Part shown: positions 1,230 through 16,368 of the stretch, in pieces
How positions within the stretch are numbered: position 1 is the first letter of the stretch
Layout of the letters: each line of letters starts with the position of its first letter
IMG/VR virus record: IMGVR_UViG_3300031087_000010
Span: 1-16,368 of that record
Direction: 5' to 3' (one strand)
DNA length: 16,368 bases
DNA from: a virus
The notes under the pieces: model-generated
Databases searched by the model: none
Seen by the model: the letters and a program-made list of their open reading frames with translations, nothing else
What the model was told of the DNA's origin: nothing
Program-made: the position numbers and the translations under genes

Positions 1230-1242
1230 CGTAGTAGGTTCC

Positions 1243-1888: not shown

Positions 1889-1921
1889 AGGCCGTGACCG
1901 TGAGTAGGGAGCAGCACAGGC

Positions 1922-2584
1922 TTAGGGCAGGTTCAGGATCTGCCCGACGTGAATCACGTTCGGGTCCGGGATCTGCGGGTTCGCCGCGATCAGCGCGTTC
2001 ACGTCCACGCCGAACTGCAGGGCGATCAGGCCCATCGTGTCGCCCTGCTCGACGATGCACCGCTGCCGTACGTCGATCCGGGCCGCTGCCCCGGTGTCGA
2101 GAATGTTCTCGGCCCGCAGGCGCAGCCAGCCGAGCAGCGGGCCGGTGCCGGGCTGGGACCAGCCGAGCCGGGCGCGGTGCATGGGCTTGGCTGAGTACCA
2201 GCCACCATCGACAAACTGCCGGGGTTCGGCGTAGCCGTCCTGCTGCAGCACGTCGGCCCCGGCCACGTCCACGGACAGGGCCGCGCAGACGTGGCCGTGC
2301 GGGTTGATCCCGTCCCCGCCATAGACGAGCCAGTCGCCCCGCTGCGGCAGGTGGTTCGGGTCGTTGGGGTTGTTGTCGTGCCGCTCCCAGAACCGATCGG
2401 GCACCCGATCGAGCAGCTCGCGGGCACCGTTCACGCCGCCCACTGATTCCGGCCAGGGAACGCCGGTCAGGACTTGGGCGAACTCGTCGATCGGATCGAC
2501 GCATTGCAGCCCGAACCGGCCGTCGGGGTTCATCTTGATCCCCTCGGCGGTGCGCAGCCATTCTTCTTCCTCGGGATGGGTCAT
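1922..2584 (-). CDS. Endolysin: N-terminal CHAP-type cysteine peptidase/amidase plus C-terminal LysM, 220 aa
   Basis: ATG 2584-2582 preceded by AGGAG (AATCTAGGAGAACAAAAATG). FGLQCVDPIDEF (Cys), HGHVCAAL (His) and VLQQDG fit a CHAP triad. The C-terminal IVEQGDTMGLIALQFGVDVNALIAANPQIPDPNVIHVGQILNLP is LysM-like. Confidence 0.88.
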   Translation of the reverse strand: MTHPEEEEWLRTAEGIKMNPDGRFGLQCVDPIDEFAQVLTGVPWPESVGGVNGARELLDRVPDRFWERHDNNPNDPNHLPQRGDWLVYGGDGINPHGHVCAALSVDVAGADVLQQDGYAEPRQFVDGGWYSAKPMHRARLGWSQPGTGPLLGWLRLRAENILDTGAAARIDVRQRCIVEQGDTMGLIALQFGVDVNALIAANPQIPDPNVIHVGQILNLP

Positions 2585-2621
2585 TTTTGTTCTCCTAGAT
2601 TGATCGTGCGGGTTGTTGGGT

Positions 2622-4583
2622 TCAGGGCAGGTAGCTGAGTGAGTCGAAATGGCTGTTACTGACGGCCGCCCACACGTCATCGCCCTCGCCGGGGCCGTGG
2701 GTCAGGTGTACGCCGTCGGCCTGAATCAGCGCGGACCATTCGGCGCGGCGCCGGGTGAACTCCTCGAATACCGGGATATAGCCGAATTTCATCGCGTCCG
2801 CGTAGGCCCTGAGTTCGAGGTTGCGGGCCGCGTGCAGCGTCCGGCCGGTGACGGGCCGGGGCGATGCCTCGGGGTTCTGTGAGGACACGATGAGTCCCGC
2901 CTTGGGGAACGCCGTGCGTACCTTGTCGATGTACGCCTGAAAGATCGGCATAAAGTCGGCGACGGTGACGCCGTTGTAGTTGTGCCCCATCGCGACAATC
3001 ATCAGATCCGGGGCGGTGGGGAACATCGAGGTAAACCAGGTGGTGTGATAGGCGAGGTTCGCGCCGGGCATCGTGCCGTTGAGGATGGTCAGGGTCTGCA
3101 GGGTCGCGGCCTCGGGGGCGCGGACCTGAAACAGGCGGATCTCATCGCCTACGGTGTCGGCGCTGATCGCCCCGAAACCGTGCCGGGTGTACGGGGCGAG
3201 GATCGCGTCGTCGGCGTCGGTGATCGCCGCCGTGAGCGTCACGCCGTTGATCGTGGCGGTGACGGCCGCGCCGGGGCCGGGCTTGTAGTGGATCTCGATC
3301 GCGTAGATCCCGTCGGCCGGTATCGCGGTGTTCCCGGTGGTGGCGATCTGCGCCCCGACGCCGTTGATCGTCTTGTTGATGGTCGCGGTCCAGGTCGAGG
3401 CCCCCCGGATCAGGCGCAGCTCGACGATGCTGTCACTGAAAAACAGGCCGGACTTGACATAGAACCGCATCTGCGCCGTTGTCGCGGGCACCGCTACGGC
3501 CTTATAGGTGTATTTGGTGTAGGTCTGCCCGCCCTGCCCGCTGCTGATAAGGACTTTGCCGTAGCCGCTGCCTGCCGTGGCTTTCGCGGCCGTGCCGGTC
3601 ACGTCCCAGTTATCGGCCCCGGACTGGTATTCCCAGGCCGACAGGCCGAGGGTGGGGGCGGTGCCCTTGATGTCGGCGGCCGTCCGGTCGAACCTGTCGT
3701 CGATCATCGTCGAGAGTTCGGTGTTCGGCGTCCCGGCTTGCACCGTGGTATCGACGAGGGCCTTGGACGAGTCGCTCCATCGCCGGTACAGCACGCGCAG
3801 CGCGGGATGCTTGGCAGCGAAATGATCGGCGAGCTTGCGCACCCATGCGGTGTTGTCGTAGCCGGTTGAGTCGGTGGTGACCGCGAGAACCGCGTCGCCC
3901 TGCCCGTTGTCAAGTTTGGCCATGAGCCGCTGCCCCTGATCGACGGCGTCGAGCTTCGAGGCCGCCGCAGCGGTCGCGGCCGCCGTCGCCTCGGCGGGGG
4001 TCGCGAACTGCTCGCCGAGGGCCGCAGCGAACGGGTTCGGGCCGCTGGACTGGTTCACGAAATCGGCGAGGGCCTGCGCGTCCTCGGCCGCGCCGGTCGC
4101 GTTGTATCCGGTCGGGCCGCGCAGGTTCGCTTTGTAGGCCCAGCCCTGCCCGTCGAACTCGGACAGGTCCCCGGTGTCCGGGTCGATCCACCACGTACCG
4201 GCCGAGGCGAGGATCGGCGGCTGCGTCCCGGTCCACACGAGGCCGGGGTTAGCCGGTACCCGCAGCAGGTCCCCGAGCGCCCCGCCCTCGGGCGGTACCA
4301 GCAGCTTCCAGGGCAGCAGCTCGGAAACCATCATGCGGGTGTCCTGATCCCGGTAACGGATCTCGACGGTGTAGTGCGTCGTTTCGGGGGCGATCAGCGT
4401 CGTCGAGACGAGATCAACCTCGAAAAAACCGTTGGCGGCCGGGACCACCTCGACGGCTTTACGGGCCGAGAGAATGTTCAGCCCGGCGAGGCCGGTCGAG
4501 CTGGCACGAAAGAGCAGCGCGGGGCTTTCGTAGAGCAGCGGGTCGAGGCCGAAATCTGTGAGTGTTCCATTGACGAGCGGCAT
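2622..4583 (-). CDS. Minor tail / receptor-binding protein with C-terminal SGNH (GDSL-like) hydrolase signature, 653 aa
   Basis: ATG overlaps the upstream TAA by 1 nt. It is the last tail gene before lysis. Candidate SGNH blocks: LAVTTDSTG (I), LNGTMPGAN (II), VAMGHNY (III), ADGVHLT (V). About 220 aa lie between blocks I and II. Confidence 0.8.
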   Translation of the reverse strand: MPLVNGTLTDFGLDPLLYESPALLFRASSTGLAGLNILSARKAVEVVPAANGFFEVDLVSTTLIAPETTHYTVEIRYRDQDTRMMVSELLPWKLLVPPEGGALGDLLRVPANPGLVWTGTQPPILASAGTWWIDPDTGDLSEFDGQGWAYKANLRGPTGYNATGAAEDAQALADFVNQSSGPNPFAAALGEQFATPAEATAAATAAAASKLDAVDQGQRLMAKLDNGQGDAVLAVTTDSTGYDNTAWVRKLADHFAAKHPALRVLYRRWSDSSKALVDTTVQAGTPNTELSTMIDDRFDRTAADIKGTAPTLGLSAWEYQSGADNWDVTGTAAKATAGSGYGKVLISSGQGGQTYTKYTYKAVAVPATTAQMRFYVKSGLFFSDSIVELRLIRGASTWTATINKTINGVGAQIATTGNTAIPADGIYAIEIHYKPGPGAAVTATINGVTLTAAITDADDAILAPYTRHGFGAISADTVGDEIRLFQVRAPEAATLQTLTILNGTMPGANLAYHTTWFTSMFPTAPDLMIVAMGHNYNGVTVADFMPIFQAYIDKVRTAFPKAGLIVSSQNPEASPRPVTGRTLHAARNLELRAYADAMKFGYIPVFEEFTRRRAEWSALIQADGVHLTHGPGEGDDVWAAVSNSHFDSLSYLP

Positions 4584-4936
4584 TAGCGTTTAGTCCTTTC
4601 GATGGTGGCGACTTTGAGGCGCAGCTCGTCGAGCTGCTGCTGCTTTTCCGGGGGCAGCACGGCGGGTTTGTCCGCGAGGTCCCGCAGGCCCTGTTCGAGG
4701 TCGTCGAGCCGGGCCGCGAGCCGGGCCGCGTTGCCCTCGGGTGAGGCCGCCGCTGCCAGCGCGTCGAGGATCTCGGCGAGCCGGATCTCGGCCGCGTCGA
4801 GCCGGGGGCCGAGGTCGGGGATCGCCCGCAGCGCAGCCTCGGCCGCGAGCCGGGCGACGGTTTCGAGGGTGGTCGGTTCGGGGGCGGCCGGTTCGGGCAC
4901 CGGGGGCAGCTCGGCCTCGGGGGTGGGTTCGGTCAT
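4583..4936 (-). CDS. Hypothetical tail-module protein, Pro/Ala-rich N-terminus plus coiled coil, 117 aa
   Basis: Internal ATG 4936-4934 forms an ATGA overlap with the upstream stop. Sequence MTEPTPEAELPPVPEPAAPEPTTLETVARLAAEA...QQQLDELRLKVATIERTKR. The longer track ORF extension overlaps the upstream gene. Confidence 0.7.
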   Translation of the reverse strand: MTEPTPEAELPPVPEPAAPEPTTLETVARLAAEAALRAIPDLGPRLDAAEIRLAEILDALAAAASPEGNAARLAARLDDLEQGLRDLADKPAVLPPEKQQQLDELRLKVATIERTKR

Positions 4937-6138
4937 AGTGTCCTGCCTAGGGTGATGTCGGTTGACCATTTTTTGCCGGTCCAGGTGGCACGCCCCGCCA
5001 TGACAAACGAGCGGATCAGGCCGGGGGCGAGGGTTGTCGCTGCGGGCACGCTCAGGGCGGCCGTGCCCCGCGTATCGACGGCGAGCAGGTTCAGCAGCGG
5101 GGCGGTGTCCAGGGCGCGGGAATCGGGCAGCTGCAGATCCGTCGGCCGCCACTTGTTCGCGGTGTCGAGCCAGTAGTTGACCACGGACCGCAACTGAGCG
5201 CCGAACGCCGCCTGATCCGCGCCGCCGAGCGATGTTTCGATCTCTACCTGCCGGAAACCGTAGGCATCCTGCAGGGCCGAGTTATCCACGAAAACGGGGG
5301 TCAGGTTCATGCGGACCTCGAACCGGGTCGAGTCCCGGTTCGCGTCCGTTTCGATCGCGTTGAACGAGGCGATCTGAACATCGGTAATCATGTCCTCGGG
5401 GGACTTCTCCCAGTCGATCCCGCGCCGCACGGCCGAGGTTGGCAGCACGGCCATACCCGAGGCACCGGCCGGGGCGGTGCCGGTCCACACGCCCCGGCTG
5501 CCGGGGCCGGGCACGCTGCCGGGGTACGTCTTGCCCCGCTCGGGACTGAACGTGAGCCGTTTTGACAGGCCCGCGCCGGGGGTGTAGTAGCTCGTGTCGT
5601 GATACCGGTAAAGGTAGGACCTGCAGAACCGCTCGGCGAGTTTGAGCCACTCGATCGACTTGTACTGCTGTTTGGTCTGCGCCACGCTGCCCCCGGTGCT
5701 GCCGGTGAGCTGCCAGCCTCGGGGCAGTTCCGAGGCCAGGGTGTTGAACCGGATCGAGGCTGCGGTGTTCGCGTCGTAGTTGACGTCGATCGCCTTGTGC
5801 TTCTGCAGCTCGGCCAGGGGCGAGGCGGCCGTGAACGAGACACGCATCGCCCCGCGTACCGAGTCGTCGGGGGTGGCTTTGAGCGGGGCGAGGTTGCCCG
5901 CGAACAGGCACCGGGACGATACCGGATCGACGAGGCCCACAGGTGCCCCGACTTCCAGCCACGCGGGCATCGCGCCCCGGATCAGGAACTGCCCCGAGAG
6001 TTTGCTCGGCGGGTCCATTTCGAGGCGTGAGTCGTTGCCCCAGCCGATCGACAGCCCGGCCAGGGCAGGCCGGGGATCGGCTGCTGCGGTTTGCATCAGT
6101 TGCCCGGCGATGTAGAGATCCGGTTTCCCGAGGCTCAT
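4933..6138 (-). CDS. Minor tail protein in the distal-tail (Dit) position, 401 aa
   Basis: Immediately follows the tape measure with an ATGA overlap (6135-6138). Function is assigned by synteny only. Confidence 0.75.
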   Translation of the reverse strand: MSLGKPDLYIAGQLMQTAAADPRPALAGLSIGWGNDSRLEMDPPSKLSGQFLIRGAMPAWLEVGAPVGLVDPVSSRCLFAGNLAPLKATPDDSVRGAMRVSFTAASPLAELQKHKAIDVNYDANTAASIRFNTLASELPRGWQLTGSTGGSVAQTKQQYKSIEWLKLAERFCRSYLYRYHDTSYYTPGAGLSKRLTFSPERGKTYPGSVPGPGSRGVWTGTAPAGASGMAVLPTSAVRRGIDWEKSPEDMITDVQIASFNAIETDANRDSTRFEVRMNLTPVFVDNSALQDAYGFRQVEIETSLGGADQAAFGAQLRSVVNYWLDTANKWRPTDLQLPDSRALDTAPLLNLLAVDTRGTAALSVPAATTLAPGLIRSFVMAGRATWTGKKWSTDITLGRTL

Positions 6139-8012
6139 ATCGTCGCCAGCTTCGGGCTGCCCTGAGACACGAGCGCCTTGTTGATCGTGCGGACGAGCTG
6201 CTTGCCCAGCTCCACGCCGTCCGTTGTCGCGTCGGCCTTGACCGTGATGTTCACTACCGTCCCGGCCGTGCGCAGGCTGCTACCGGACAGGCTGCCCAGG
6301 CTCGCCGACGTGCTCGCAAGTGAGGCTGTGCCGGTGAGTGACTGCGTACCGGCGAGGGGCTGCGCCGTGAATGACTGGACACCCATCAGGGGGGCCGCCA
6401 TGAGCGGGGCGAGGGAACCGCCGTCAGCGTTGCCCACGACGCCGCTGCCGCCGCCGCCCTTGCCCTGCACCGCTTGGAACGCTTTCAGGACGGCGATCGC
6501 GGTATTGATCCAGCCGATTGTTTCCTTGATCTGCGCGGTGATCCCGATCATCGCGTTCACGCCCACGTTTTGCAGGATCTTGAACGCGCCCTCGACGCCG
6601 CCGATCGGGGCGAGCATCTTATCGAGCCAGGCGATCACGTCGTCGATCTTGTCTTGAATGATCTTGAACGCTACCTGCGCCGTGGCTGCGGTGTTGTCCA
6701 CTGCCTCACGGAACCAGCCGACATTCTCGTACGCCCAGATCAGGCCCGCAGCGATCAGCCCGAGGGCGATAATCACGATGCCGATCGGGTTCGCTGCCAT
6801 GGCAATATTCCAGAGCCACTGAGCGACGGTCACAGCCGCGATCAGCCCGGCCATAGGCCCGAGATAGTCCGAGTACTGGATCGCCCAGTCGAGGACGGGC
6901 TGCAGGTAGGGGATCGCCTGCGCCGCGAACGTCTGCAGTTGCCCCTGCGCCTCGCGGCTGAACTTCTCGATCGCCACGCCCGGCCCCTCGCCGACGGTCC
7001 TGCCGAGTTCGTCGGCCTTGCCTGCCAGGGAATCGAACGAGTCGCCCATCGGGTCGATAGCGTTCAGGAAGTCGGGGATCTTGGCGGTGCCGAGATCTTC
7101 CAGGGGTGTCCCGAACAGGGCGAGGGCGGCCGTTGCGCGGGCCTGCGGGTCCTCGATGTTTGACAGGCCGGTGACGATTTTCCCGAACGCTACCTCGGCG
7201 TCGTCGCCGCCCGCGAGGATCTTCTGCGCCATTTCGTCGGAATTGACGCCGATCGCCTTGTAGGCATCGACGGTGGTTTTGCTGCCGTCGGTCGCCCGGA
7301 TCGTGAACTCTTTGAGCGCATCGCCCATCTTGTCCATGCCGATCGCGCCGTCTTTGGAGGCGTTGACGATGATCCCGAAAGCGGTTGAACCGTCGATGCC
7401 GAGATCCGCGAAATGCTTGCTGTACTCGTCCATGACGGGCAGCAGCTCGGCCTGCATCGCCTTGGGCATCTTCTGCATGGAACCGACGAGCAGATCGAAC
7501 GCCTCGTCGCCGTCCTTGGCGAGGCCGGTTTTCATCAGGATCCCGGCCGTGTTCACCGCTGCGGGCACGTCGAGTTCAAACGTGCTGGCCAGATCCATCG
7601 CCTTCCGGGTGAGCCGTTCCACGTCGGCCCCGCCGTTATCGGACATCTTCGCCAGGGACGAGGCGACGGCCGACACCGCGCCCTCAACCTCGGCCAGTGA
7701 CTCGCCGTAGGCATCCCGGTAGAGCTTGCCCGATACCTCGCCCGCTTTCTTGGCGTCCTCCCCTGTCAGGCCGAGCTGCCCTGCGAGTTTGCGGCTGCCC
7801 TTGTCCGCCTCGATCGCGTCGACGAAACCCTTGGTCAGGGCAGCGCCTGCGCCCACCCCGGCGAGCTTGCCCGCGAGTTCCATGCCGGAATTGATCTTGG
7901 ACATTTTCGAGCCGTATTTCTCGGCCGCGCCCTCGGCGTCTTTGTAGGCTTTCTCTGCTCCCTTGGCATCGCCGATAATGCGCACTGACAGGATCGCGGA
8001 TTTACCGGCCAT
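6135..8012 (-). CDS. Tail tape measure protein, 625 aa
   Basis: Longest tail gene, directly after the chaperone pair. Ala/Gly-rich helical sequence with an internal hydrophobic block (GLIAAVTVAQWLWNIAMAANPIGIVIIALGLIAAGLIWAY). ATG 8012-8010 is preceded by AGGGG. Confidence 0.9.
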   Translation of the reverse strand: MAGKSAILSVRIIGDAKGAEKAYKDAEGAAEKYGSKMSKINSGMELAGKLAGVGAGAALTKGFVDAIEADKGSRKLAGQLGLTGEDAKKAGEVSGKLYRDAYGESLAEVEGAVSAVASSLAKMSDNGGADVERLTRKAMDLASTFELDVPAAVNTAGILMKTGLAKDGDEAFDLLVGSMQKMPKAMQAELLPVMDEYSKHFADLGIDGSTAFGIIVNASKDGAIGMDKMGDALKEFTIRATDGSKTTVDAYKAIGVNSDEMAQKILAGGDDAEVAFGKIVTGLSNIEDPQARATAALALFGTPLEDLGTAKIPDFLNAIDPMGDSFDSLAGKADELGRTVGEGPGVAIEKFSREAQGQLQTFAAQAIPYLQPVLDWAIQYSDYLGPMAGLIAAVTVAQWLWNIAMAANPIGIVIIALGLIAAGLIWAYENVGWFREAVDNTAATAQVAFKIIQDKIDDVIAWLDKMLAPIGGVEGAFKILQNVGVNAMIGITAQIKETIGWINTAIAVLKAFQAVQGKGGGGSGVVGNADGGSLAPLMAAPLMGVQSFTAQPLAGTQSLTGTASLASTSASLGSLSGSSLRTAGTVVNITVKADATTDGVELGKQLVRTINKALVSQGSPKLATI

Positions 8013-8453
8013 GCTTGCCCCTGCTCTCTGCTTGTTCTTCGAGGATTGAAATTGCCGTGAGTATGTTCTCGGGCGACTCGTCCGCCCAGGCCGAGGGCAT
8101 CGTGTTTGTTGCCAGGGCCAGGGCGACGAGCAGGGAACTTACAGAGTCGGCGGGGTGTCTAAACCCAGGCCGAGTACCTCATCCTCGTGCTGCTCGTCCT
8201 CGTCGGCGGGGATGACCATCAGCGCCCCGGTGTTCGGGTCGGTGAACTCTTCCCAGGTCTGATCGATCAGGCCCGCCCGCTTGGCAGCGGACCAGCCGCG
8301 AAAGCTCTGCAGCTTCATCGTGTTTTCGGAGATCGTGCCGAGCCTCGGGTTGGCTTTGAGCATCTTCTCGAAAGCGAACGTATCGAACAGGTTCGGGGTG
8401 ACGGTGATCTCGGAACCGTCGGCCTGCGTAATGGTGAGCTTGGGAATTGCCAT
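8002..8453 (-). CDS. Tail assembly chaperone -1 frameshift product (GT-like), about 150 aa
   Basis: After a slip at G_GGT_TTA (8166-8160), the -1 frame stays open for 52 codons (RHPADSVSSLLVALALATNTMPSAWADESPENILTAISILEEQAESRGKHGR). It stops at TAA 8004-8002, 8 nt inside the tape measure gene, and so fills the otherwise empty 126-bp gap. Confidence 0.7.
8139..8453 (-). CDS. Tail assembly chaperone (G-like, zero-frame product), 104 aa
   Basis: Lies immediately upstream of the tape measure. Acidic C-terminus (PADEDEQHEDEVLGLGLD) and a slippery heptamer near the 3' end. Confidence 0.8.
   Translation of the reverse strand: MAIPKLTITQADGSEITVTPNLFDTFAFEKMLKANPRLGTISENTMKLQSFRGWSAAKRAGLIDQTWEEFTDPNTGALMVIPADEDEQHEDEVLGLGLDTPPTL
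8160..8166 (-). other. Programmed -1 ribosomal frameshift slippery heptamer G_GGT_TTA
   Basis: Minus strand reads CTG GGT TTA GAC in the zero frame, i.e. X_XXY_YYZ phased correctly, 6 codons before the zero-frame stop. Confidence 0.65.
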
Positions 8454-8457
8454 GGTC

Positions 8458-8874
8458 TTAGATGCCTTTGACTAGTTGGATTGAATCATCGAGAGCCCGC
8501 TCGTAGACGGGCAGCCAGCGCCCCTCACTGGACCGGGCACCCTCGGAAATAAACAGGGCACCCCGGACCACTGAGCGGGTACGGCGGGGGTGGGTTTTGT
8601 TCGGCCAGTACCGCCTGCCCCAATGGATCGCGGCCGCGTACGGGGCGGCCTTGTTCCCGGCCCGGACGATGCCAGCGGTTTTCGTGCCAGCGCCCCGGAT
8701 CGTTCGGGACAGGCGGCCGGTGACGCGGGGGGCGAGGTCGGCCGAGGCGCGGGCCGCGATGTTCGCGGCCGCCTTGTGCGAGTCTTTGAGATCCGCCAGG
8801 GAATGCCCGGCCGCCGTCAGCGTCTTGCGGAGCTGCTTGACGCCCTCAACCTTGATCCCCGCGTCTTGTGCCAC
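8458..8874 (-). CDS. HK97 gp10-like neck/tail-completion protein, 138 aa
   Basis: GTG start 8874-8872. The pattern ..LAPRVTGRLSRTIRGAG...AGIVRAGNKAAPYAAAIHWG matches the remembered gp10-family pattern (P..TG.L..SI....YA..vE.G). Confidence 0.7.
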   Translation of the reverse strand: MAQDAGIKVEGVKQLRKTLTAAGHSLADLKDSHKAAANIAARASADLAPRVTGRLSRTIRGAGTKTAGIVRAGNKAAPYAAAIHWGRRYWPNKTHPRRTRSVVRGALFISEGARSSEGRWLPVYERALDDSIQLVKGI

Positions 8875-8877
8875 GGT

Positions 8878-9291
8878 CTAGGCGATCAGGCCGAGGTTGT
8901 AATCCCCGACGATCGGGAACGTGAACTCGGACTCGTTGCGGGTCTTGACATCGCCGCCGATCCGCAGCCTGCGGACCTTGACAATGCCGGTGACCTGCAG
9001 CGCCCCGTCGTTGTTCGGAATGAATGTAAACGGCAGTTCCTCGCCCCGGTGTTCGTGGCTCCACAGGATCAGGGACTGCGCATCGTAGGACTGCAGGACG
9101 GTCCCGGTCAGCTCGGCCGTGTCGGTGTCGTCCCCGCCGATCTCCTCGCCGGACAGGACCGGGATCGAGTCCTCGGTATCGGTGGATGGTTCCACGCTGC
9201 AGGCCCTGAGCTGTGAGGCCCACTGCTCGGCGCTGCCGGTCGCGCCGATCGAGAGTGTGCCGGGGCCGAGCTTGTCTGATTTGACGGGCAT
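8878..9291 (-). CDS. Major tail (tube) protein candidate, 137 aa
   Basis: ATG overlaps the upstream TAA by 1 nt. Assigned by size and position in the tail module, and because it is the only unassigned structural ORF that could be the tube. No diagnostic motif. Confidence 0.6.
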   Translation of the reverse strand: MPVKSDKLGPGTLSIGATGSAEQWASQLRACSVEPSTDTEDSIPVLSGEEIGGDDTDTAELTGTVLQSYDAQSLILWSHEHRGEELPFTFIPNNDGALQVTGIVKVRRLRIGGDVKTRNESEFTFPIVGDYNLGLIA

Positions 9292-9638
9292 TAGGTCGCC
9301 TCTACTTTCACGCTAAGGGGGATCTTGAACGCGGGCAGGATGCCCGAGCTTGTCTGTACGCCCTCGTCGAGCTGGATCTCGCCGTCGGGGGTTACTGCTT
9401 TGAGGGCCTGCTGCAGCAGGCCCTGCAGGGTTTCGATCGCCGCCATGTAGCCCAGATCCGGGGATATGAGATAGATGCTCAGATCCAGGCGGCCGCCGCC
9501 GTCGAGCGTTTCCTGCTCGATCGTGTCGGCCGCGATCCAGGCGCAGGGCGGGATCAGTTTGTCGGTGTCGGTGTCTGCGGTGAGGCCCGCGCCCTGCAGA
9601 GCGTCGGTGACGCTCTGCAGGGCCTCGGTGATCCTCAC
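9291..9638 (-). CDS. Head-tail joining protein, tail-terminator-like, 115 aa
   Basis: GTGA overlap with the adaptor gene (9635-9638). Position between adaptor and tube; function is from synteny only. Confidence 0.6.
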   Translation of the reverse strand: MRITEALQSVTDALQGAGLTADTDTDKLIPPCAWIAADTIEQETLDGGGRLDLSIYLISPDLGYMAAIETLQGLLQQALKAVTPDGEIQLDEGVQTSSGILPAFKIPLSVKVEAT

Positions 9639-9982
9639 CCGATCTCGGGCGGTGAGAACCGCCCGATCCGCAGGAGCTGCTCGATCAGGACATCGGTAAC
9701 ACGCCGGAACGCCGAGTCGGGGATCTGCCCGCCCAGGCCGTTATCGGTGATGCCCGGTTTGTTCTGATCCCGGTACAGCCCGGCCGCGAGCCGGGCCGCG
9801 CCGAGGCGCTTGTCGTCCGGCCACTCGACGGGCAGCCCGGCCCCGTCTACCGGGTCCGTGTGGTACCGGCGTATGTAGGCGTTGGTCGCCTTGACGAGTG
9901 ACTGCAGCCGCACGTCGTTCTCGGGGATGTTCGGCATCCCGAGTTCGAGCTTGACCGCTGCGGCCGTGGTGGGATCGGCCAT
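9635..9982 (-). CDS. Head-to-tail adaptor (gp6-like connector), 115 aa
   Basis: First gene after the capsid gene. The N-terminus AAVKLELGMPNIPENDVRLQSLVKATNAYIRRY is typical of gp6-like connectors. Confidence 0.7.
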   Translation of the reverse strand: MADPTTAAAVKLELGMPNIPENDVRLQSLVKATNAYIRRYHTDPVDGAGLPVEWPDDKRLGAARLAAGLYRDQNKPGITDNGLGGQIPDSAFRRVTDVLIEQLLRIGRFSPPEIG

Positions 9983-9984
9983 GG

Positions 9985-11607
9985 TTAGACGGCCGGGGTA
10001 ACGGTGCGCTTGACGATCGCTCGGGGGTCGTTCACGACGAGGCCGCCGTAACTGAAGAAACCGAGATCCACGCCGCCGCGTGCGATGTCCTGCGCCTGCA
10101 GCTTGATCGGGGTTTTCTCGTGAACGTCGGCCGCCCGCTTGTCGAAACCGACAACCTGCCCGAGGTCGAGCTGCCCGTCGGCCTCGATCCGCAGATCCGC
10201 GACGGTGGCCTCGGCGTTGGCCAGTGAGATCCCGGTCGCGTTGGCGAGCCAGAACGGAACCTCGGACTGCTTGAGGTTGCCGTAATCCTCGAACACGTCC
10301 TCGGCCAGGAAGATCTGCGAAACGGTCGCGCCTACCTGCCGCAGGTCGGTCGCGATCGAGGCGATCGCTGCCAGGGCCGTGGGGCTTGCGCCCTTGTCCG
10401 TGGCTGCTGTCAGGAGCTGCGTGGCGATGTCCTCGTTCGAGGCGATGTCATACTCGGCCGCCGCTGCGGTCCAGAACGAGATCAGGAAATCGGCGTTCCC
10501 CAGGTCGATGAAAATACGGTCGATGTCCCAGCCACCGGCCCAGCGCCCGGCCGTGCCAGTGATCGGCTTGGTTTTGGGCTTATTGCTCGGCACGTCGGTT
10601 TTGTTGCCCGAGTACTTGGCTACCTTCGGGCGCACGTCCCAGGCCCAGCCGCGCAGCTCCATCGAGGTCAGCGGCTTGACCGGGCCGAGGGCCTCGATCC
10701 AGGGGCGGCCGGTGTTCGCGGCCTGCCATACCTCGCCCATCCATCCCTCGCGCAGGCCCCAGCCCTCGCCGAGGTCGTCGGCGGGCAGCACGTCCTGCAG
10801 GGCGAGCCGGATCTGCGTCGGGTCCTGCGTCGCGACGGCGGCCGAGACTTTGCGGGCCACGCTCAGCAGCGACTGCGGGCGGGGCTTGGTGGTCACGCTG
10901 CCTGCCTGCGGGAAACCATCGGCCTGCAGGCGCTGCTCGGGGGCCGGTGCCTGCTGCCCCTCGGGGGCGGCCGGGGCGAGCGGTGCCTGCTGCTGCCCGC
11001 CGAGGGCCTGCTGCCCGAGCGGGGACTCGGGGGCGGCCTGCCCGCTGGCACCGGGGGCGGTGCCGAGGGTGGCGATCTGCGCGTCGGTGAGGCCCGCTGC
11101 CTTGAGTGCTGCGATCTGTTCGGGGGTCATTGTGGCTGCTTTCTTTCGGGCCGCAGACAGTGCTACGGACTCAACTTGTGCATCTTGGAAATCGGGAACG
11201 GCGACGAGCGATGTCTCGAACCATTCGGCCGCGTGAACGATGAGATTGAACTCGTCGTCGAACTCGTATTTGTTGGCGATAAAACCGACGCTGAAACCAT
11301 CGCGCAGGCCCTGCTCGGCATCGTCGAGGGCCTTGTCGCCGTCCGCGCCGTCCGCGACTTTGTACGTCGCCTTGATCGACTCGGGGCCGGGGGTGTACTC
11401 GGTCATGTAGCCGACGGGCTGCCCGAGGTCGTGATCGCGGAGCAGCTTCACACGCTTGATCGGTTGGCGGGGGGTGAGGCTGCCGGGCATGAGCTTGACG
11501 CCCTGAGAGCTGCTGTGCTTGTTGAAAACAGTTACGGTCCCGGTGATCGTCCGGCCCGCGCGATCTACCGCGCACGCGCCCGAGATCGAGAGCTTGATCG
11601 GGTCCAT
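9985..11607 (-). CDS. Prohead (HK97-type S78) protease fused to major capsid protein, 540 aa
   Basis: N-terminal ~160 aa carry LLRDHD (His), DGFSVGF (Ser) and ETSLVAVPDF, as in HK97-family prohead proteases. An Ala/Pro/Gln-rich linker follows (APGASGQAAPESPLGQQALGGQQQAPLAPAAPEGQQAPAPEQ), then a ~300-aa C-terminal domain in the capsid position. No separate capsid or scaffold gene is present. Confidence 0.85.
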   Translation of the reverse strand: MDPIKLSISGACAVDRAGRTITGTVTVFNKHSSSQGVKLMPGSLTPRQPIKRVKLLRDHDLGQPVGYMTEYTPGPESIKATYKVADGADGDKALDDAEQGLRDGFSVGFIANKYEFDDEFNLIVHAAEWFETSLVAVPDFQDAQVESVALSAARKKAATMTPEQIAALKAAGLTDAQIATLGTAPGASGQAAPESPLGQQALGGQQQAPLAPAAPEGQQAPAPEQRLQADGFPQAGSVTTKPRPQSLLSVARKVSAAVATQDPTQIRLALQDVLPADDLGEGWGLREGWMGEVWQAANTGRPWIEALGPVKPLTSMELRGWAWDVRPKVAKYSGNKTDVPSNKPKTKPITGTAGRWAGGWDIDRIFIDLGNADFLISFWTAAAAEYDIASNEDIATQLLTAATDKGASPTALAAIASIATDLRQVGATVSQIFLAEDVFEDYGNLKQSEVPFWLANATGISLANAEATVADLRIEADGQLDLGQVVGFDKRAADVHEKTPIKLQAQDIARGGVDLGFFSYGGLVVNDPRAIVKRTVTPAV

Positions 11608-12710
11608 TATTTTTTGCCCTCGGCTTTCTTGATGTCCTCGGTGGTCATGAGTTCCAGCTCTTTGGCGAGCTTGTAGTTTCCGTACCGGGTGGCGGTGTCC
11701 TCTCGGGTCAGTACGTCGGTGTCAAACCGGCGATAGCGGCCGTGAGCGCAGAGATCATCCATGCTCAGGCGGTCCTCAAACGCGGTCATGTAGGGGGCCA
11801 GGAAGTTATCGATCAGCGCCGCCTCGCGGCTTGCCTTGTTCGAGTAGCTCAGGGACGTGCCCTCGGCTGCGGCCGCCGCGATCTCGGGGTTCGAGGCTGC
11901 GCCCATATGCCGCAGCAGTTCCAGGGTGATCGCCTTGCGGCCGTCGATCATGAGCTGCTCGGCGGCCTGCCCGAGGCTCGTTACCTTGACCTGCTTCGAG
12001 CTGTACCCGACGCCGTGAACCTCGCGGGCCTTGATCCAGCGGTTGAGCAGAGCGTCGATCTCGTCCTTGTTCAGATCCTCGCCCTCGTTGTGGATATCCA
12101 GCGAGGGAACCGGGTTGTTCTCAGCTTTCGCGGCTGCCCGGTTGAGCCGGATCGCCCGCCTGATCGTGTCGGCCCCGCGCAGCAGCAGGCCCTCGTGAGG
12201 CCCGTCGATCCTGATCGAGTCTTTCGCGGGCACGTCCTCGCCGAACGCCTTGACCATCTGCCCGGCGTCGTTGGTTTCGGCCTGATCCTCGGGCACGAGC
12301 CGGAACCGTGAGGGCCTGCCCTCGTTGTCGCGGTCCATTACCTGCCAGAACGCCCGGCCGTGAAAGAACATGTTGTCGATCGTCCACAGGACAGTCTGTG
12401 AGCGGGTCCGCCCTGCCTCGGGCTGCACAAGGGAACGGGGCTGAGTCGGGACGGGCAGCCCGTTCGTGCCGTACTCGACGAGGGGGCAGCGGGAGATCCG
12501 GCCCACGAGGACATCGCGCCCGGCCGCTACCGTGGCGATCCCGATCGCCGCGTTCCGGCCGACAGCACCGGACACCCCGACGCCGTAGAGCATGTCGAAC
12601 GTCACGGTTTCCAGGTGCGAGCCGTCGGACCAGGGCGAGAGCAGGACATTCTGCGCAGCGGACAGGCCCCGAGGCATGAAAGCTTGGGAAATACGTTCGA
12701 GTAGTTTCAC
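11607..12710 (-). CDS. Portal protein (HK97-family-like), 367 aa
   Basis: Lies between the terminase region and the protease/capsid gene. GTG start 12710-12708; its stop overlaps the next ATG by 1 nt. Confidence 0.85.
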   Translation of the reverse strand: MKLLERISQAFMPRGLSAAQNVLLSPWSDGSHLETVTFDMLYGVGVSGAVGRNAAIGIATVAAGRDVLVGRISRCPLVEYGTNGLPVPTQPRSLVQPEAGRTRSQTVLWTIDNMFFHGRAFWQVMDRDNEGRPSRFRLVPEDQAETNDAGQMVKAFGEDVPAKDSIRIDGPHEGLLLRGADTIRRAIRLNRAAAKAENNPVPSLDIHNEGEDLNKDEIDALLNRWIKAREVHGVGYSSKQVKVTSLGQAAEQLMIDGRKAITLELLRHMGAASNPEIAAAAAEGTSLSYSNKASREAALIDNFLAPYMTAFEDRLSMDDLCAHGRYRRFDTDVLTREDTATRYGNYKLAKELELMTTEDIKKAEGKK

Positions 12711-12760
12711 GGTTGTAACTCTGCGGGCACCGTATAACGCACGAAAGCCAGAGACGCGAA

Positions 12761-12807
12761 AAGGCCCCGCCTGATCTTCCGGGGGGGGAAAGATCAGGCG
12801 GGGCCTT
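12761..12807 (-). terminator. Strong hairpin: perfect 18-bp stem, 11-nt C/G homopolymer loop, short U-tract on the minus strand
   Basis: AAGGCCCCGCCTGATCTT (12761-12778) pairs with AAGATCAGGCGGGGCCTT (12790-12807). The minus-strand RNA ends ..GGCGGGGCCUUUUCG. It sits in the 111-bp gap between the 79-aa ORF and the portal gene. Confidence 0.65.
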
Positions 12808-12821
12808 CGCTAGCTGCTCGG

Positions 12822-13061
12822 CTATGTACTCACGTACGGAGAGAGTTTAGCAGCTTCTTTCTTGAGGTTGTCCTGCAGCTCGCGCATCCTTGCCATGCCG
12901 TAGGCGAGTGTCGCCTGCTTTTCCCCGTCGTGCGCCGCCCGCTCGTGATCGGCTGCGGCCGCCCAGGCGGGCACCCTGCCCACCCTCACGGCCCGATATG
13001 ACGGGCACTTGTCGCAAACGATCACCACTGATTCAGACGTGAAATCCAGTTTTATTGCCAT
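12822..13061 (-). CDS. Hypothetical protein, 79 aa, with CxxC...HxxxxH cluster
   Basis: ATG preceded by GGGGAG at 9-nt spacing. Sequence MAIKLDFTSESVVIVCDKCPSYRAV...ADHERAAHDGE. Confidence 0.7.
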   Translation of the reverse strand: MAIKLDFTSESVVIVCDKCPSYRAVRVGRVPAWAAAADHERAAHDGEKQATLAYGMARMRELQDNLKKEAAKLSPYVST

Positions 13062-13103
13062 GTTGAGCAGCTCCCCAGCTTTGTTGCTTTTTAGTGATAA
13101 GGC

Positions 13104-14543
13104 TCACCAATCGATCATTGGCTTGCCCAGTGATTCCTCTCGATGGTCATACGCCCACAGCCCGACGGCCGAGGCGATGATCGAGGGGATCGGCGCGGTG
13201 CTGTGTTCCCGAGAGAACGTCACACCGCCCGACATCTTGCGCAGCACCGCGTTAGCGACGGCGGCCGCGAGGCTGCGGCTGCCGTCCCAGCGGAGCGTCT
13301 TGTCGTCGCGTGCCCAGGTCAGCCACGCATCGCAAGCAGTGCCGTGATCCCGAGCGCCGACGGTGAAAACCTCGACGGGCTTGTGATCCTTGCTCGTGGG
13401 GTTCCGCAGCTCGTCGGTGACGCGCCGGGTCGCCCCGCCGTCGTCGGCCCCGATTACAGCCGGTTTCCACTCGCGGTCAATCATGCGGATAAACGGGACC
13501 ACCCACGCCGTTCCCGGTGCCGCGTGAACAACGGCCGTGCAGGGCATCCCGGTATCGTCGCGCCAATTCGCCATGACAGCGGCGCAGGTGTTGTTCCAGC
13601 CGATCTCGTAACTGATCGCCACTTTCGAGCGCAGCGGCGCGTCCTCGGGGCCGATCGTGGCGAGCTGCCGGAAATCATCGGTACCGATCAGCGGGTCGGC
13701 CGCCTCGGTCAGCCGGTTCATGTAGGCACGCATCCACTCGCCGGGATTATCGAGGTAGTTGTGTGCCTCGATCGCCATTGATTCCTGCGTGATCGTGATC
13801 CCGTAGGCCGGGTGGAACGAGGCCCAGGTGTCCGGGTCGTACGGGTCCGCGCCCTCGGGCATTGACCACTCGAAATAGGCGATGCCCGGCTCCCCGGCCC
13901 GGCCCCGCTTGACAAGCTTGTTCATGAATACCGATTGCGCCGTGCCCATTGTGGACACGAGCCAGATCTGCCGGTTGTGGATCGTGATCTGCGCCGGGCC
14001 GATCGCGCCCATCAGCTCATTGCCGCGCAGCTCGTCATGCTTCCAGATCTCGTCGAGGGTGACGATCAGCGGGGTTTCGCCGTGCAGCGCCGAGGGGCCG
14101 GGCGCGAAAATGTTCAAGCTCGAACGGTTCGGCAGGGACATCGACTCGGAACCGGCCGCGTACCGCAGGGCGAACAGTTCCTCGATCGGTGACTCTTGAA
14201 CGAGGGCCACGAGATCCGCGAACCGGGCGCGGGCATCCTTGCCCGTTTGGGCGGTGTAGAACCCTTTGCAGCCGTGGTTCATCATCAGCCGGGTCAGGTT
14301 CACCGGGCCGACGAGAGTCGTCTTTCCGGACTGCCGGGGCACGGTCACGAGAACGATCGGGTACTTGTAGCGGCCGTCGGGGTAGTACTCGGTGGCGATG
14401 TCGGCGACGTGCCGCTGCCAGGGCATCAGCGGTTTGCCGAGGGCCGCCGCAACATGAGCGATGTCTGCGCCCTCGGACGGCAGGGACAGATCCCGCTCGG
14501 GGCTGTAGGCGGGCCTCGGCATCGCCGGGGCGATCACGCTCAC
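13104..14543 (-). CDS. terL: Terminase large subunit, 479 aa
   Basis: Walker A VPRQSGKTTL, Walker B LIVTLDEIW and an STMGT coupling-like motif, with a C-terminal nuclease-sized domain. Adjacent to the HNH and portal genes. Confidence 0.92.
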   Translation of the reverse strand: MSVIAPAMPRPAYSPERDLSLPSEGADIAHVAAALGKPLMPWQRHVADIATEYYPDGRYKYPIVLVTVPRQSGKTTLVGPVNLTRLMMNHGCKGFYTAQTGKDARARFADLVALVQESPIEELFALRYAAGSESMSLPNRSSLNIFAPGPSALHGETPLIVTLDEIWKHDELRGNELMGAIGPAQITIHNRQIWLVSTMGTAQSVFMNKLVKRGRAGEPGIAYFEWSMPEGADPYDPDTWASFHPAYGITITQESMAIEAHNYLDNPGEWMRAYMNRLTEAADPLIGTDDFRQLATIGPEDAPLRSKVAISYEIGWNNTCAAVMANWRDDTGMPCTAVVHAAPGTAWVVPFIRMIDREWKPAVIGADDGGATRRVTDELRNPTSKDHKPVEVFTVGARDHGTACDAWLTWARDDKTLRWDGSRSLAAAVANAVLRKMSGGVTFSREHSTAPIPSIIASAVGLWAYDHREESLGKPMIDW

Positions 14544-14740
14544 TAGTAGCCCTTAGTTGCCCGCAGCATCGCCCGGCCCCAGCTTGCCCAGCTCGTGACG
14601 AAACCCTCGGCCGAGACGGTGAGCCAGTGCGCCTCGGCAGGGTTGCAGTCGGTGTCCTCGCCGTCGCAGCGGAACACGAGGGCCTTTGAGGGCCGGGCTG
14701 CCTGCCCGCCCTCGGTCGTGAGTTGAAAACCGTTGTTCAT
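14543..14740 (-). CDS. Hypothetical protein, 65 aa
   Basis: ATGA overlap upstream (14737-14740) and a 1-nt overlap with the terL GTG downstream, so it is translationally coupled on both sides. Confidence 0.6.
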   Translation of the reverse strand: MNNGFQLTTEGGQAARPSKALVFRCDGEDTDCNPAEAHWLTVSAEGFVTSWASWGRAMLRATKGY

Positions 14741-15105
14741 GATGTCTCCTGTCGGCTCGGGAACGTTTCGAGGAACGCCTCGAACTTGCCCCGGTTGGCT
14801 ACTTCCGGTTGCGGCAGGGCCGCCATTGTGTCGCGGTACGAGTCCATCAGGCCGGTAATCGCGGTGATCCGTACCCTCGGATCTCCCAGGGCTTTCTGCA
14901 GCATCCGGGCCTGATCGAGGGCGAGCTGGCAGATCGCCAGATGCCGCGCCTCGATCAGTTGCTGCTTGTTCAGATCCTCGATCGAGAGCTGAGTCGCCCT
15001 AACGATATCGGTATCCTGCCCGGTGCCGAGGGGTTGCACTTCGAGGCCGGGCAGTTCGGTTTGGATCTCTAACAACTCGGCCGCCTTTCGGTGCGATCCC
15101 GGCAA
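14737..15105 (-). CDS. Hypothetical protein; positional candidate for the small terminase subunit (up to 122 aa)
   Basis: Lies between HNH and terL. The start is uncertain: TTG at 15105 has no SD, while TTG at 15075 is preceded by AAAGG at 8-nt spacing. I recognise no motif. Confidence 0.55.
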   Translation of the reverse strand: MPGSHRKAAELLEIQTELPGLEVQPLGTGQDTDIVRATQLSIEDLNKQQLIEARHLAICQLALDQARMLQKALGDPRVRITAITGLMDSYRDTMAALPQPEVANRGKFEAFLETFPSRQETS

Positions 15106-15166
15106 AACCGGTTTTTTTTCTGAGCGATTCGGGGGAAATGGAAGGGTAGGCGCGGGGTGTCCAGAG

Positions 15167-15436
15167 CTACCCGATTCTAAAAAACTGCTGTTGATCCTCG
15201 ACGATCGCGGCCGGGCCTTCGAGTATCCGCGTGCCCTTGCTGCTGTTGCACGGACCGTGAGCGGGCCGCAGGTTGTCGAGGTCGAACATCAGCTCGGGAT
15301 ACTGGGACTTGGGCAGGACGTGATCGGCGGTGGTCGCGCCGGGCAGGTGACAGATCCAGCATTTGTCGCCATATGCTTCGAGTGTAAGCCTTGTGAACTC
15401 TTGGGCTTTACGCCCTCCCCAGCTCGGGGCACTCAT
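15167..15436 (-). CDS. HNH endonuclease, 89 aa
   Basis: CWICHLPGATTADHVLPKSQYPELMFDLDNLRPAHGPCNSSKG carries the Cys pair plus H-N-H residues. ATGA overlap with the upstream gene. The position next to the terminase genes is typical of cos-type phages. Confidence 0.9.
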   Translation of the reverse strand: MSAPSWGGRKAQEFTRLTLEAYGDKCWICHLPGATTADHVLPKSQYPELMFDLDNLRPAHGPCNSSKGTRILEGPAAIVEDQQQFFRIG

Positions 15437-15648
15437 GCCGCGATGGGTTTGCTGCAGAGTGCGCAGTCGCCGATCGTGAGCCGGATCGGTTCGGGGCAGC
15501 AGCAGTGAGTGATCCCGAGGCGTACGCCCTGCAGCGTGAGATCCCCGCTGATCGGCATCGGCCAGCCCATCCGCTCATAGGCGACTGCCTCGCGTACCCG
15601 TTCGTCGGTAGCGGGTACGGCGTGCCGTTCCCAGTCCTCGTACGTCAT
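15433..15648 (-). CDS. Hypothetical Cys-cluster protein, 71 aa
   Basis: Internal ATG 15648-15646 of track ORF 15433-15882; an alternative GTG lies at 15669. Sequence MTYEDWERHAVPATDERVREAVAYERMGWPMPISGDLTLQGVRLGITHCCCPEPIRLTIGDCALCSKPIAA. Confidence 0.6.
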   Translation of the reverse strand: MTYEDWERHAVPATDERVREAVAYERMGWPMPISGDLTLQGVRLGITHCCCPEPIRLTIGDCALCSKPIAA

Positions 15649-15655
15649 GCCCCAG

Positions 15656-15979
15656 TTAGAGTGAGCCACGGTATTCCCCCCATTGTTTGTTGACTGCCTG
15701 CTGCCAGGCGTGGTGTTGGTGTTTCGGGCAGGGTGCCATGTTGTTGCACCCCTCGGCCGAGCAAGCCTGAAACTCAAACCCTTGGATCTTAACAGGCTTG
15801 TTCGGTGCATCCTCCAGCGGTGCATCGAACGTTTCGGCGGGTCGGCGGTTGAACTTGCGTATTGTCTCCTGCTGTGCTGCATAGGCCCCTGCGGTGCTGC
15901 GGGAGCCTGCAGCCTCGGCCTCGGCGATCGTGATCTCGTTCTCGTCGAACAGGGCCTGCAGGTGTTCCGGCTCGATCAT
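15656..15979 (-). CDS. Hypothetical Cys/His-cluster protein, 107 aa
   Basis: ATG 15979-15977 forms an ATGA overlap with the stop of the initiator-like gene. The C-terminal region contains CSAEGCNNMAPCPKHQHH. Confidence 0.7.
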   Translation of the reverse strand: MIEPEHLQALFDENEITIAEAEAAGSRSTAGAYAAQQETIRKFNRRPAETFDAPLEDAPNKPVKIQGFEFQACSAEGCNNMAPCPKHQHHAWQQAVNKQWGEYRGSL

Positions 15980-16368
15980 CGATGCTCCCTGCACTTGATG
16001 TAGTCCTGCCCAGGGTAGGACCGCCTGCCGACAACGCTGCAGCCCTCGGCGTGCTTCCAGCAGTTGAGCATCGGATTATCGTTGCCCGAGGATCTGCAGG
16101 GGATGCAATACCGGCCGCGCAGCTCGCGGACTTTTCCACAGGCGAAACACTTGCCCTCGTTCTCTGGTGAGGTACTTGTGAAACTGGATTCATCAGAGTT
16201 ACTAGGGTGGTTTATGGATGGTTTGGGTGTCCGCTGGGACAGGGGGGGGGTGTCCGCTGGGACACCCCCCCCGGTGTCCGCCAGGACAGGGGGTGTCCGC
16301 TGGGACACCCGGTGCTGTGCGGAACGGTCACAGTCGGCCGGGCACTTGACGAGGATCTCGTAACGGTT
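15976..16368 (-). CDS. Winged-helix initiator-like protein, C-terminal part (linker plus CxxC-x10-CxxC zinc-ribbon-like domain); 5' end continues at 127 -> 364 of the circular map
   Basis: Track ORF 15976-16308 begins at an internal GTG. The frame stays open to the window end (393 nt = 131 codons). Joined to 2-364 it gives 209 aa. C-terminus: ENEGKCFACGKVRELRGRYCIPCRSSGNDNPMLNCWKHAEGCSVVGRRSYPGQDYIKCREHR. Confidence 0.8.
   Translation of the reverse strand, partial: NRYEILVKCPADCDRSAQHRVSQRTPPVLADTGGGVPADTPPLSQRTPKPSINHPSNSDESSFTSTSPENEGKCFACGKVRELRGRYCIPCRSSGNDNPMLNCWKHAEGCSVVGRRSYPGQDYIKCREHR
16228..16307. repeat. Iteron-like array: four 14-bp TGTCC-N4-GGACA palindromes separated by G/C homopolymers
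   Basis: Sites at 16228-16241, 16251-16264, 16275-16288 and 16294-16307, with start-to-start spacing of 23, 24 and 19 bp. Spacers are G9, C8GG and G5. All lie inside the coding linker of the initiator-like gene. Confidence 0.85.
16242..16368. repeat. Terminal overlap, copy 2 (identical to 1-127)
   Basis: Same comparison. 127 nt equals a commonly used maximum assembler k-mer, which fits a circular-contig closure artefact rather than a biological repeat. Confidence 0.97.

Follow-up and report, generated by a model that had tools for sequence, protein, structure and literature searches.

Candidate lambda-type replication origin inside its own initiator-like gene in a small phage genome

Palindromes, AT-richer patch and protein domains of the initiator-like gene

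Here we describe a cluster of palindromes and an adjoining AT-richer patch that lie inside an initiator-like gene of a small phage genome (IMG/VR virus record IMGVR_UViG_3300031087_000010), and weigh the evidence that together they form a replication origin laid out like that of phage lambda. The whole stretch of DNA analyzed, positions 1 to 16,368 of the record and hereafter called the window, is a circular or concatemeric assembly in which 1-127 exactly duplicates 16242-16368, giving a genome unit of 16241 bp once this 127-nt terminal overlap is subtracted. The initiator-like gene is encoded on the minus strand and runs across the circular junction: its 5' part, at 128-379, encodes a winged-helix domain (HTH_36), and its 3' two-thirds, at 15976-16368, encode the end of this N-domain, a disordered linker, and a C-domain, with the stop codon at 15976-15978. 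Translation may start at an ATG at 364, yielding 209 amino acids identical to database protein P0001, or at a GTG at 379, which gives MSVESMAIV... as in the N-termini of related proteins; the product is thus 209-214 amino acids long, and residue numbers given below follow the 209-amino-acid form. In gene orientation the order of elements is N-domain, four palindromes, AT patch, and C-domain.

The palindromes follow the pattern TGTCC-N4-GGACA and occur as TGTCCGCTGGGACA at 16228, 16251, and 16294 and as TGTCCGCCAGGACA at 16275, with start-to-start spacings of 23, 24, and 19 on the window (19, 24, and 23 in gene orientation). Numbered in gene orientation, iteron 1 (TGTCCGCTGGGACA, 16294-16307) forms an extended dyad, GGGTGTCC-CAGC-GGACACCC, on the minus strand; iteron 2 (TGTCCGCCAGGACA, 16275-16288) is read in a frame different from that of iterons 1 and 4; iteron 3 (TGTCCGCTGGGACA, 16251-16264) is flanked by G8 and C8, which extends it to a 30-nt palindrome at 16243-16272; and iteron 4 (TGTCCGCTGGGACA, 16228-16241) adjoins the AT-rich patch. 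When one mismatch is allowed, seven hits are found in the window versus 0.45 expected, a number reached in none of 200 shuffles, and the longer 16-mer GTGTCC-N4-GGACAC has no site with two or fewer mismatches elsewhere in the genome. The terminal overlap copy at 1-127 repeats iterons 1-3 at 53-66, 34-47, and 10-23; since the hits at 10, 34, and 53 are duplicates arising from this overlap, the genome has four palindromes. While the assembly breakpoint falls within the array, mis-assembly is unlikely given that the overlap exceeds the array length and that the identical protein is recorded from two contigs. The 127-nt overlap presumably corresponds to the k-mer length of the assembler.

The palindromes encode residues 100-127, giving the peptides VSQRTP, VLADT, VPADTP, and LSQRTP. 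With two of the spacings (19 and 23) indivisible by three, the copies are read in different frames: copies 1 and 4 share one frame and copies 2 and 3 another, such that one DNA motif produces two unrelated peptides. The spacers between palindromes are homopolymer runs in coding DNA (G9 at 16242-16250, C8 at 16265-16272, and G5 at 16289-16293) and are prone to slippage and sequencing error. In one related locus (L039) the homologous open reading frame (ORF) stops in the spacer/array region, with stop codons within the 9-mer repeats described below, and a frameshift or a truncated form of the protein is possible.

Directly after iteron 4 lies the AT-richer patch (16168-16227, G+C 0.43), a candidate DNA-unwinding element that encodes residues 127-147. 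G+C at third codon positions (GC3) is 0.40 in the patch, compared with 0.84 in the rest of the gene and 0.85 in 13 other genes of the window, and no 57-nt segment of the genome is lower in G+C than 16168-16224 (0.40), which is equalled only by an intergenic spot near 13042. The patch opens with a 9-mer, AAACCATCC (plus strand GGATGGTTT), located on the minus strand at 16216-16224, which is followed 11 nt downstream by a second, slightly divergent copy, AAACCACCC, at 16205-16213 on the same strand; as a whole, the element reads cccAAACCATCCatAAACCACCC on the minus strand at 16205-16227. Rfam, promoter, terminator, and tRNA scans of the candidate origin region were all empty.

The protein matches Pfam HTH_36 (PF13730) over residues 14-59 with 39.5 bits (gathering cut-off 25) and PHROG 8540, named 'replication initiation O-like', with E = 3.2e-45 (residues 1-200 aligned to positions 6-193 of the 196-position profile), the family name being an annotation and not a tested function. 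Weaker matches, confined to the N-terminus, were obtained to other initiator PHROGs, among them 678 (1.4e-7) and 345 (4.7e-4), DnaD_N (PF21984) fell below threshold (15.8 bits versus a cut-off of 27), and the Pfam scan of the protein gave no Rep_3-type match. An AlphaFold2 model based on a 32-sequence alignment places a winged helix at residues 1-96, whose third helix, the predicted recognition helix (45-58), is encoded at 191-232; a linker at 97-148 that spans the repeats and most of the patch and is predicted to be disordered (predicted local distance difference test, pLDDT, below 50); and a C-domain at 150-209 (15979-16158, minus strand; pLDDT 78-93). The C-domain is Cys-rich and zinc-ribbon-like (CxxC...CxxC...C...C...C). 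A single-sequence AlphaFold model of this domain (pLDDT 53) was too poor for structure search, and sequence-profile search of the PDB yielded no more than a marginal match to nuclear-receptor C4 zinc fingers (E = 0.008). A Foldseek search against the PDB returned only generic winged-helix matches (E of at least 5e-3), many of MarR/SlyA type and including, among the weak matches, the N-domain of DnaD (2v79, E = 7e-3); these matches therefore cannot separate a regulator from an initiator. A BFVD search returned many unnamed viral helix-turn-helix (HTH) proteins and, weakly, one 'putative replication protein O' (1.2e-4). Within the N-domain, GIANHDGDGGAWP (residues 20-32; 269-307, minus strand) does not vary among 32 relatives whose identity is 45-73%; the motif occupies a loop modelled with low confidence ahead of the HTH, and its conservation is unusually strict for a winged-helix domain.

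An earlier note, made by reading the letters of this DNA, had described the palindromes, the patch and their place in the gene, and its description holds up on measurement. The four copies (three of one form and one of another) are where it placed them, the patch it put at 16171-16227 with about 44% G+C measures 43.9% against 65.4% for the window overall, and the repeats do lie in the linker-coding part of a winged-helix gene, between domains at 1-96 and 150-209, where they are translated into the reiterated SQRTP/PADTP-type peptides of a linker that was suspected, and is now predicted, to be disordered.

Conservation of the array and the 9-mer among relatives, and covariation with the recognition helix

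Megablast of the whole genome against 50,697 phage records gave no nucleotide match, and relatives were therefore sought through the protein. A protein search yielded 861 relatives; an IMG/VR scan confirmed 232 loci, 80 of which were fetched, most of them on 15-18 kb contigs. The nearest cultured relatives by protein are 42 Arthrobacter phages of cluster AN (Decurrovirus, ~15.5 kb, 54% identity) and 2 Curtobacterium phages, and genomes of Paeniglutamicibacter, Paenarthrobacter, and Microbacterium contain homologues as well.

In brief, the homologous part of the gene in each locus was scanned for exact 5+N+5 palindromes with shared arms and loop length. At least three same-arm palindromes were found in 34 of the 80 related loci versus 1 of 857 control windows from the same loci, and at least two in 62 of 80 versus 44 of 857. 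The sole control window with at least three copies is an ordinary in-frame 15-nt coding tandem repeat (L070, 5044-5150), comprising seven tandem CCGGCCGACGAGCTG copies that encode DELPA-type repeats in a neighbouring gene. Arrays in relatives range from three to five palindromes, usually four copies spaced 19/24/23 or three spaced 19/23-24, and relatives too read their copies in different frames. Loss of the palindromes in relatives that keep the protein had been named in the earlier note as a finding that would speak against an origin; comparison reveals an array that is retained at the same gene position with the same spacing. The arms themselves differ between lineages. GGTGTCC-N4-GGACACC is shared by the window, L007-L009, and L076, while other lineages carry GGTGAC-N6-GTCACC, GGTGTCG-N4-CGACACC, GGATGC..GCATCC, AGTGCTG..CAGCACT, GGCGGTG..CACCGCC, and others. 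Between the window and L008, whose N-domains are 62% identical in amino acids, none of the four copies differs in its TGTCC/GGACA arms and the spacing is unchanged, while only 10 of 22 four-fold degenerate sites are identical, which is near saturation.

The patch and the 9-mer are likewise features of the family. In the 60 nt that follow the array in relatives, GC3 is 0.46 compared with 0.73 elsewhere in the gene, a drop seen at every locus compared (38 of 38; Wilcoxon 8e-8). The 9-mer has the consensus (A/G)AACC(A/G)TCC, within a wider motif CCC(A/G)AACC(A/G)TC(C/A) that stands right after the last palindrome in almost all relatives; it usually recurs 11-12 nt further on, with three copies at some loci, and its presence is independent of palindrome class and C-domain type. 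Of the 80 loci, 57 have the 8-mer core in the linker region, whereas its density elsewhere in these loci is 0.1 per kb (both strands). Each of the three frames is used, with K/E-P-S, T-R/Q-T-I, or N-H-P/Q as the resulting peptides. Where it is read in the P-K/E-P-S frame, codon choice is fixed: K is AAA in 20/20 cases (AAA usage elsewhere in the genes is 23%), E is GAA in 15/15 (29% elsewhere), and the second P is CCA in 24 and CCG in 11 cases and never CCC or CCT (together 50% elsewhere), although these counts ignore shared ancestry. Such comparisons show that the repeats (two frames), the AT patch (GC3), and the 9-mer (three frames, fixed rare codons) are under selection on the DNA and not on the peptide. 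By position, the 9-mer resembles the repeated elements of the unwinding regions of oriC and of iteron plasmids.

Two further observations concern DnaA. Host DnaA boxes (TTGTCCACA, at most one mismatch) are not enriched in the genome (4 versus 1.7 expected; 21 of 200 shuffles reach 4), and a DnaA-box reading of TGTCC was dropped, given that its partial likeness to the box core is absent in relatives with other half-sites. One DnaA-box-like 9-mer with a single mismatch, TTTTCCACA, lies at 16132-16140, ~30 nt past the AT patch.

Variation in the palindrome arms is mirrored in the protein. Mutual information between half-site class and N-domain columns peaks at residue 47 (1.49 bits), followed by residues 44, 50, and 51, which together form one face of the predicted recognition helix. 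When pairs of loci were compared at matched divergence outside the helix, same-class pairs had 56-85% of residues 44/47/50/51 in common versus 14-37% for different-class pairs, and the main pairings are N47/K50 with TGTCG (15/18), S/T47/R50 with GTGAC (10/13), and R47/E50 with AGTGC (4/4), figures that are not fully corrected for shared ancestry. This is the pattern that would be expected of a cognate protein-site pair.

Parallels with known origins and competing explanations

The lambda record provides the closest point of reference. Four 18-bp iterons lie within its gene O at 39034, 39054, 39078, and 39101 (to 39118), spaced 20/24/23 and covering codons 117-145 of 299, and are followed by an AT-rich stretch of 32% G+C; this is the ori anatomy described in PMC7466680, where the iterons are given as inverted repeats. 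Like lambda, the window has four dyad-symmetric repeats in an initiator-like ORF between its N- and C-domains (codons 100-127 of 209) and an AT-rich region directly downstream of the last repeat, and the 20/24/23 spacing of lambda compares with 19/24/23 here and in many relatives despite the lack of significant protein similarity. The lambda-like arrangement proposed in the earlier note is thereby borne out. Several differences are nonetheless evident: (i) lambda O has a P-binding C-domain, whereas the window has a small Cys-rich zinc-ribbon-like module, (ii) lambda has a P/DnaC-type loader, whereas the window gene is followed by small unknown genes and then HNH, (iii) spacers are A-rich in lambda and G/C homopolymer runs in the window, and (iv) the window has a 9-mer direct repeat opening the AT patch and a high-GC actinobacterial host.

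The link between the two protein families is found in profile matches and in domain exchange. Lambda O matches Phage_rep_O (5.7e-36), the window protein HTH_36 instead; the lambda O N-domain matches PHROG 678 (1.7e-35) and PHROG 345 (5e-17), both also matched by the window protein, and PHROG 391 matches the window protein via its N-terminal half and lambda O via its C-terminal half. In one relative (L040), the same N-domain, with its GIANHDGDGG motif and AACCATCC repeats, precedes a C-domain with matches to PHROG 277, the lambda O family (2.5e-12), and to PHROG 2514 'DnaD-like helicase loader' (2e-23), and in another (L073) 'replication initiation protein' PHROGs are matched by the C-domain. 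The alternative C-domains of relatives gave no Pfam match, and the ORFs downstream in L040 include no obvious helicase loader on reading of their translations, no library scan having been made. In lambdoid phages the iterons and the N-domain vary together while C-domains are exchanged as modules, and the same holds among the relatives of the window. Because relatives fuse this N-domain to a lambda-O-type C-domain, and because such modular exchange is known from lambdoid O, the N-domain can be taken as the probable origin-binding domain, the C-domain exchange being the strongest argument for it.

Other systems share parts of this layout. The Bacillus phage SPP1 carries oriL, composed of repeats and an AT-rich unwinding element, inside gene 38, which encodes the replisome organizer gp38 (PMC6316719); as in the window, the origin lies within the gene of its origin-binding protein, but SPP1 has direct repeats, a second origin (oriR), its own loader gp39, and a DnaB-type helicase gp40, none of which is found in the window. 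Iteron plasmids (RepA/RepE/pi/TrfA, WH1-WH2) resemble the window in having a winged-helix initiator, clustered sites, and an adjacent repeat-bearing unwinding element, one strand of whose repeats Rep proteins can bind according to PMC10602881; their iterons, however, are direct repeats bound by monomers and located outside the rep gene, whereas the window sites are palindromic and intragenic. Among cluster AN phages, Decurro (genome ~15.5 kb) encodes gp23, which is 54% identical in amino acids over the whole protein and is labelled 'replication initiation O-like' in RefSeq. The cluster has a similar gene order (capsid-protease fusion, HNH next to terminase, HTH genes), and in Decurro palindromes with G/C-run spacers are present at the homologous gene position, together with AAACCATC repeats and an AT patch. 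Cluster AN differs in lacking nucleotide similarity to the window and in having more degenerate palindromes (GGTGTCG / GGTATC half-sites). In Decurro (L001), 2811-2905 contains one good dyad, GGTGTCG-TCAA-CGACACC, then mixed GGTGTCG/GGTATC/GGGTAC half-sites with C5G7 runs between them, and a simple repeat finder reports the spacers of this degenerate array (GATACCCCCGGGGGGGTAC x2) and not its sites. Klyczek et al. 2017 (PMC5513430) describe gp23 only as a DNA-binding protein and cluster AN as being without DNA-metabolism genes.

Given these parallels, 16168-16307 is very probably a lambda-type origin inside the gene of its own initiator, serving to recruit the host replisome. The steps of binding, complex formation, unwinding, and host-replisome recruitment, including any role of the zinc-ribbon-like C-domain, are what we infer from the anatomy. 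The minus-strand gene would be transcribed early to give the protein, whose N-domain winged-helix dimers would bind the four GGTGTCC-N4-GGACACC sites via recognition helix 45-58. With sites approximately two helical turns apart, an O-some-like nucleoprotein complex could form, and strain from this complex would open the adjacent AT-richer patch, at the start of which the two 9-mers (AAACCATCC / AAACCACCC) may act as unwinding-region-like repeats or as a host-factor site. The zinc-ribbon-like C-domain, replaced in relatives by what may be other recruiting modules, would then bring in a host helicase or primosome, after which the host replisome would copy the genome.

A number of results weigh against this interpretation. 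Cumulative GC skew shows no interpretable extremum and no origin signal, the measure being uninformative since all genes share one strand. Alignment of the window protein to lambda O by hhalign is not significant (probability 0.2%), the Pfam scan of the protein gave no Phage_rep_O (PF04492) hit, and a PLSDB protein search found no plasmid Rep homologue, only one weak 60-residue match. The N-domain is structurally as near to MarR-type regulators as to DnaD or RepA_N. The patch is moderate in AT-richness (56% A+T), and the neglect of shared ancestry noted above tempers both the 9-mer codon counts and the covariation. Lastly, the C-domain matches no PHROG or Pfam family, and the recruiting step is therefore a guess.

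The generic fold raises the question of whether the protein is instead a transcription regulator, with the palindromes being operators in its own gene (an autoregulatory roadblock or timing switch) that play no part in replication. The best PDB matches do include many MarR/SlyA-type regulators, and palindromic sites bound by dimers are typical of operators. We consider this unlikely, however, given that no sites occur in any intergenic or promoter region of the genome, that it leaves the AT-shifted synonymous sites, the 9-mers by the array, and the lambda-like spacing unexplained, and that relatives join the N-domain to lambda-O-type and other 'replication initiation' C-domains; the phage would, moreover, be left without any initiator among the genes scanned.

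The candidate origin could also act as single-stranded DNA, its hairpins or cruciforms marking where single-strand initiation or priming begins or serving as an origin of rolling-circle type. In single-stranded form the segment has a much more stable fold than its shuffles (-37.9 kcal/mol, z = -4.97), and iteron 3 lies within its G8...C8 palindrome, but any palindrome array folds well, and the lambda iterons are likewise inverted repeats (PMC7466680). Since half-site/recognition-helix covariation points to sequence-specific recognition of duplex DNA, and since neither an HUH/Rep nickase nor a primase gene is present among the genes scanned, we regard such a role as very improbable. The disordered, repetitive peptide encoded by the region might further suggest that the repeats are a by-product of a proline-rich low-complexity linker grown by slippage, in which the symmetry and the AT patch would be functionless. 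It is hard to see how slippage would produce one motif read as two peptides in two frames, every copy of it palindromic and the copies spaced out of phase with the codons, or how the array would be kept across relatives at 40-73% identity with saturated synonymous sites while control windows lack such arrays, and the comparative data contradict this account. Finally, while intragenic repeated protein-binding sites occur at some pac sites and the assembly breakpoint falls within the array, a packaging (cos/pac) or partition-type site is scarcely credible, as related cos phages have their physical ends past the HNH gene, ~770 bp away from the homologous array; the linear Decurro record measures 15524 bp and carries the homologous gene at 14084-14752. 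The 127-nt overlap is an exact duplication of the termini typical of circular assembly, and ParA/ParB genes are absent among the genes scanned.

Returning to the lambda-type origin, a more specific version of it is that the gene is a loader-free, one-protein module whose C-domain recruits the host helicase or primosome directly, with the 9-mers being an unrecognised Micrococcales loading/unwinding element or the target of the GIANHDGDGGAWP loop. We put this forward tentatively, as it is rather doubtful; if true, the family would provide a natural winged-helix/half-site recognition code (N47/K50-TGTCG, S/T47/R50-GTGAC, R47/E50-AGTGC).

The author of the earlier note knew of no such motif or arrangement in phages this small, which is correct in part. 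The arrangement is classical, and the window extends the lambda/SPP1 layout to another protein family and host phylum; moreover, the protein family is already 'O-like' in PHROGs as well as in RefSeq, where the Decurro homologue carries that label. In the literature searched, however, there appears to be no description of the origin or its conservation, nor of the helix/half-site covariation and the universal 9-mer. Actinobacterial siphoviruses of 15-17 kb are among the smallest tailed phages, and the statement that they have 'no DNA-metabolism genes' (PMC5513430) left open how their replication starts. A single gene that carries its own origin would answer this in principle and would show to what extent the replication module of a tailed phage can be reduced. 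As a candidate minimal replicon, the gene-plus-ori cassette might serve in vectors for Arthrobacter, Microbacterium, and related genera, the natural iteron/recognition-helix pairs offer a data set on winged-helix specificity and on origin incompatibility among co-infecting relatives, and the conserved 9-mer is a concrete target for finding a host factor.

Gene content and other features of the genome

Every large ORF of the window is on the minus strand. PHROG scans identified structural genes (terminase large subunit, portal, capsid-protease fusion, head-tail connector, neck, and major and minor tail proteins), an endolysin gene, an XRE-type HTH protein (848-1081, minus strand), and an HNH endonuclease (15167-15436, minus strand). 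In keeping with what the earlier note had claimed, the genes scanned include no polymerase, helicase, or primase, and they include no loader either, a 625-amino-acid ORF at 6135-8012, in a tape-measure-like position, lying outside the scan; the other unassigned genes all encode fewer than 130 amino acids. In the gene at 9985-11607 (minus strand; PHROG 2263, protease families 94 and 80), head-maturation protease and major capsid protein are fused, as has been reported for cluster AN and for Rhodococcus phage RRH1.

A prophage-like copy of this small-phage family (L085) was found beside host genes on the chromosome of Arthrobacter sp. GMC3 (PJIO01000002.1, 532739-553443), with no integrase within 10 kb upstream. 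Its gene order is XRE (reverse strand), MerR-like, an unknown gene, HTH_36, small genes, and HNH, then a large ORF in terminase position (no Pfam hit), portal, and an S78 peptidase-domain protein in the position of the capsid protease.

Two compositional features concern the genome at large. RAACCRTC occurs nine times genome-wide versus 1.96 expected from shuffles, none of 200 of which reach nine, at 1452, 4325, 4856, 7387, 8413, 9185, 10913, 11294, and 16217, with six copies on the plus strand; this excess may reflect coding bias or dispersed copies of an origin motif. The other lowest-G+C spot, 13021-13100 (G+C 0.35-0.41), falls between the ORF at 12822-13061 and the terminase large-subunit gene, and may be a promoter or regulatory region.

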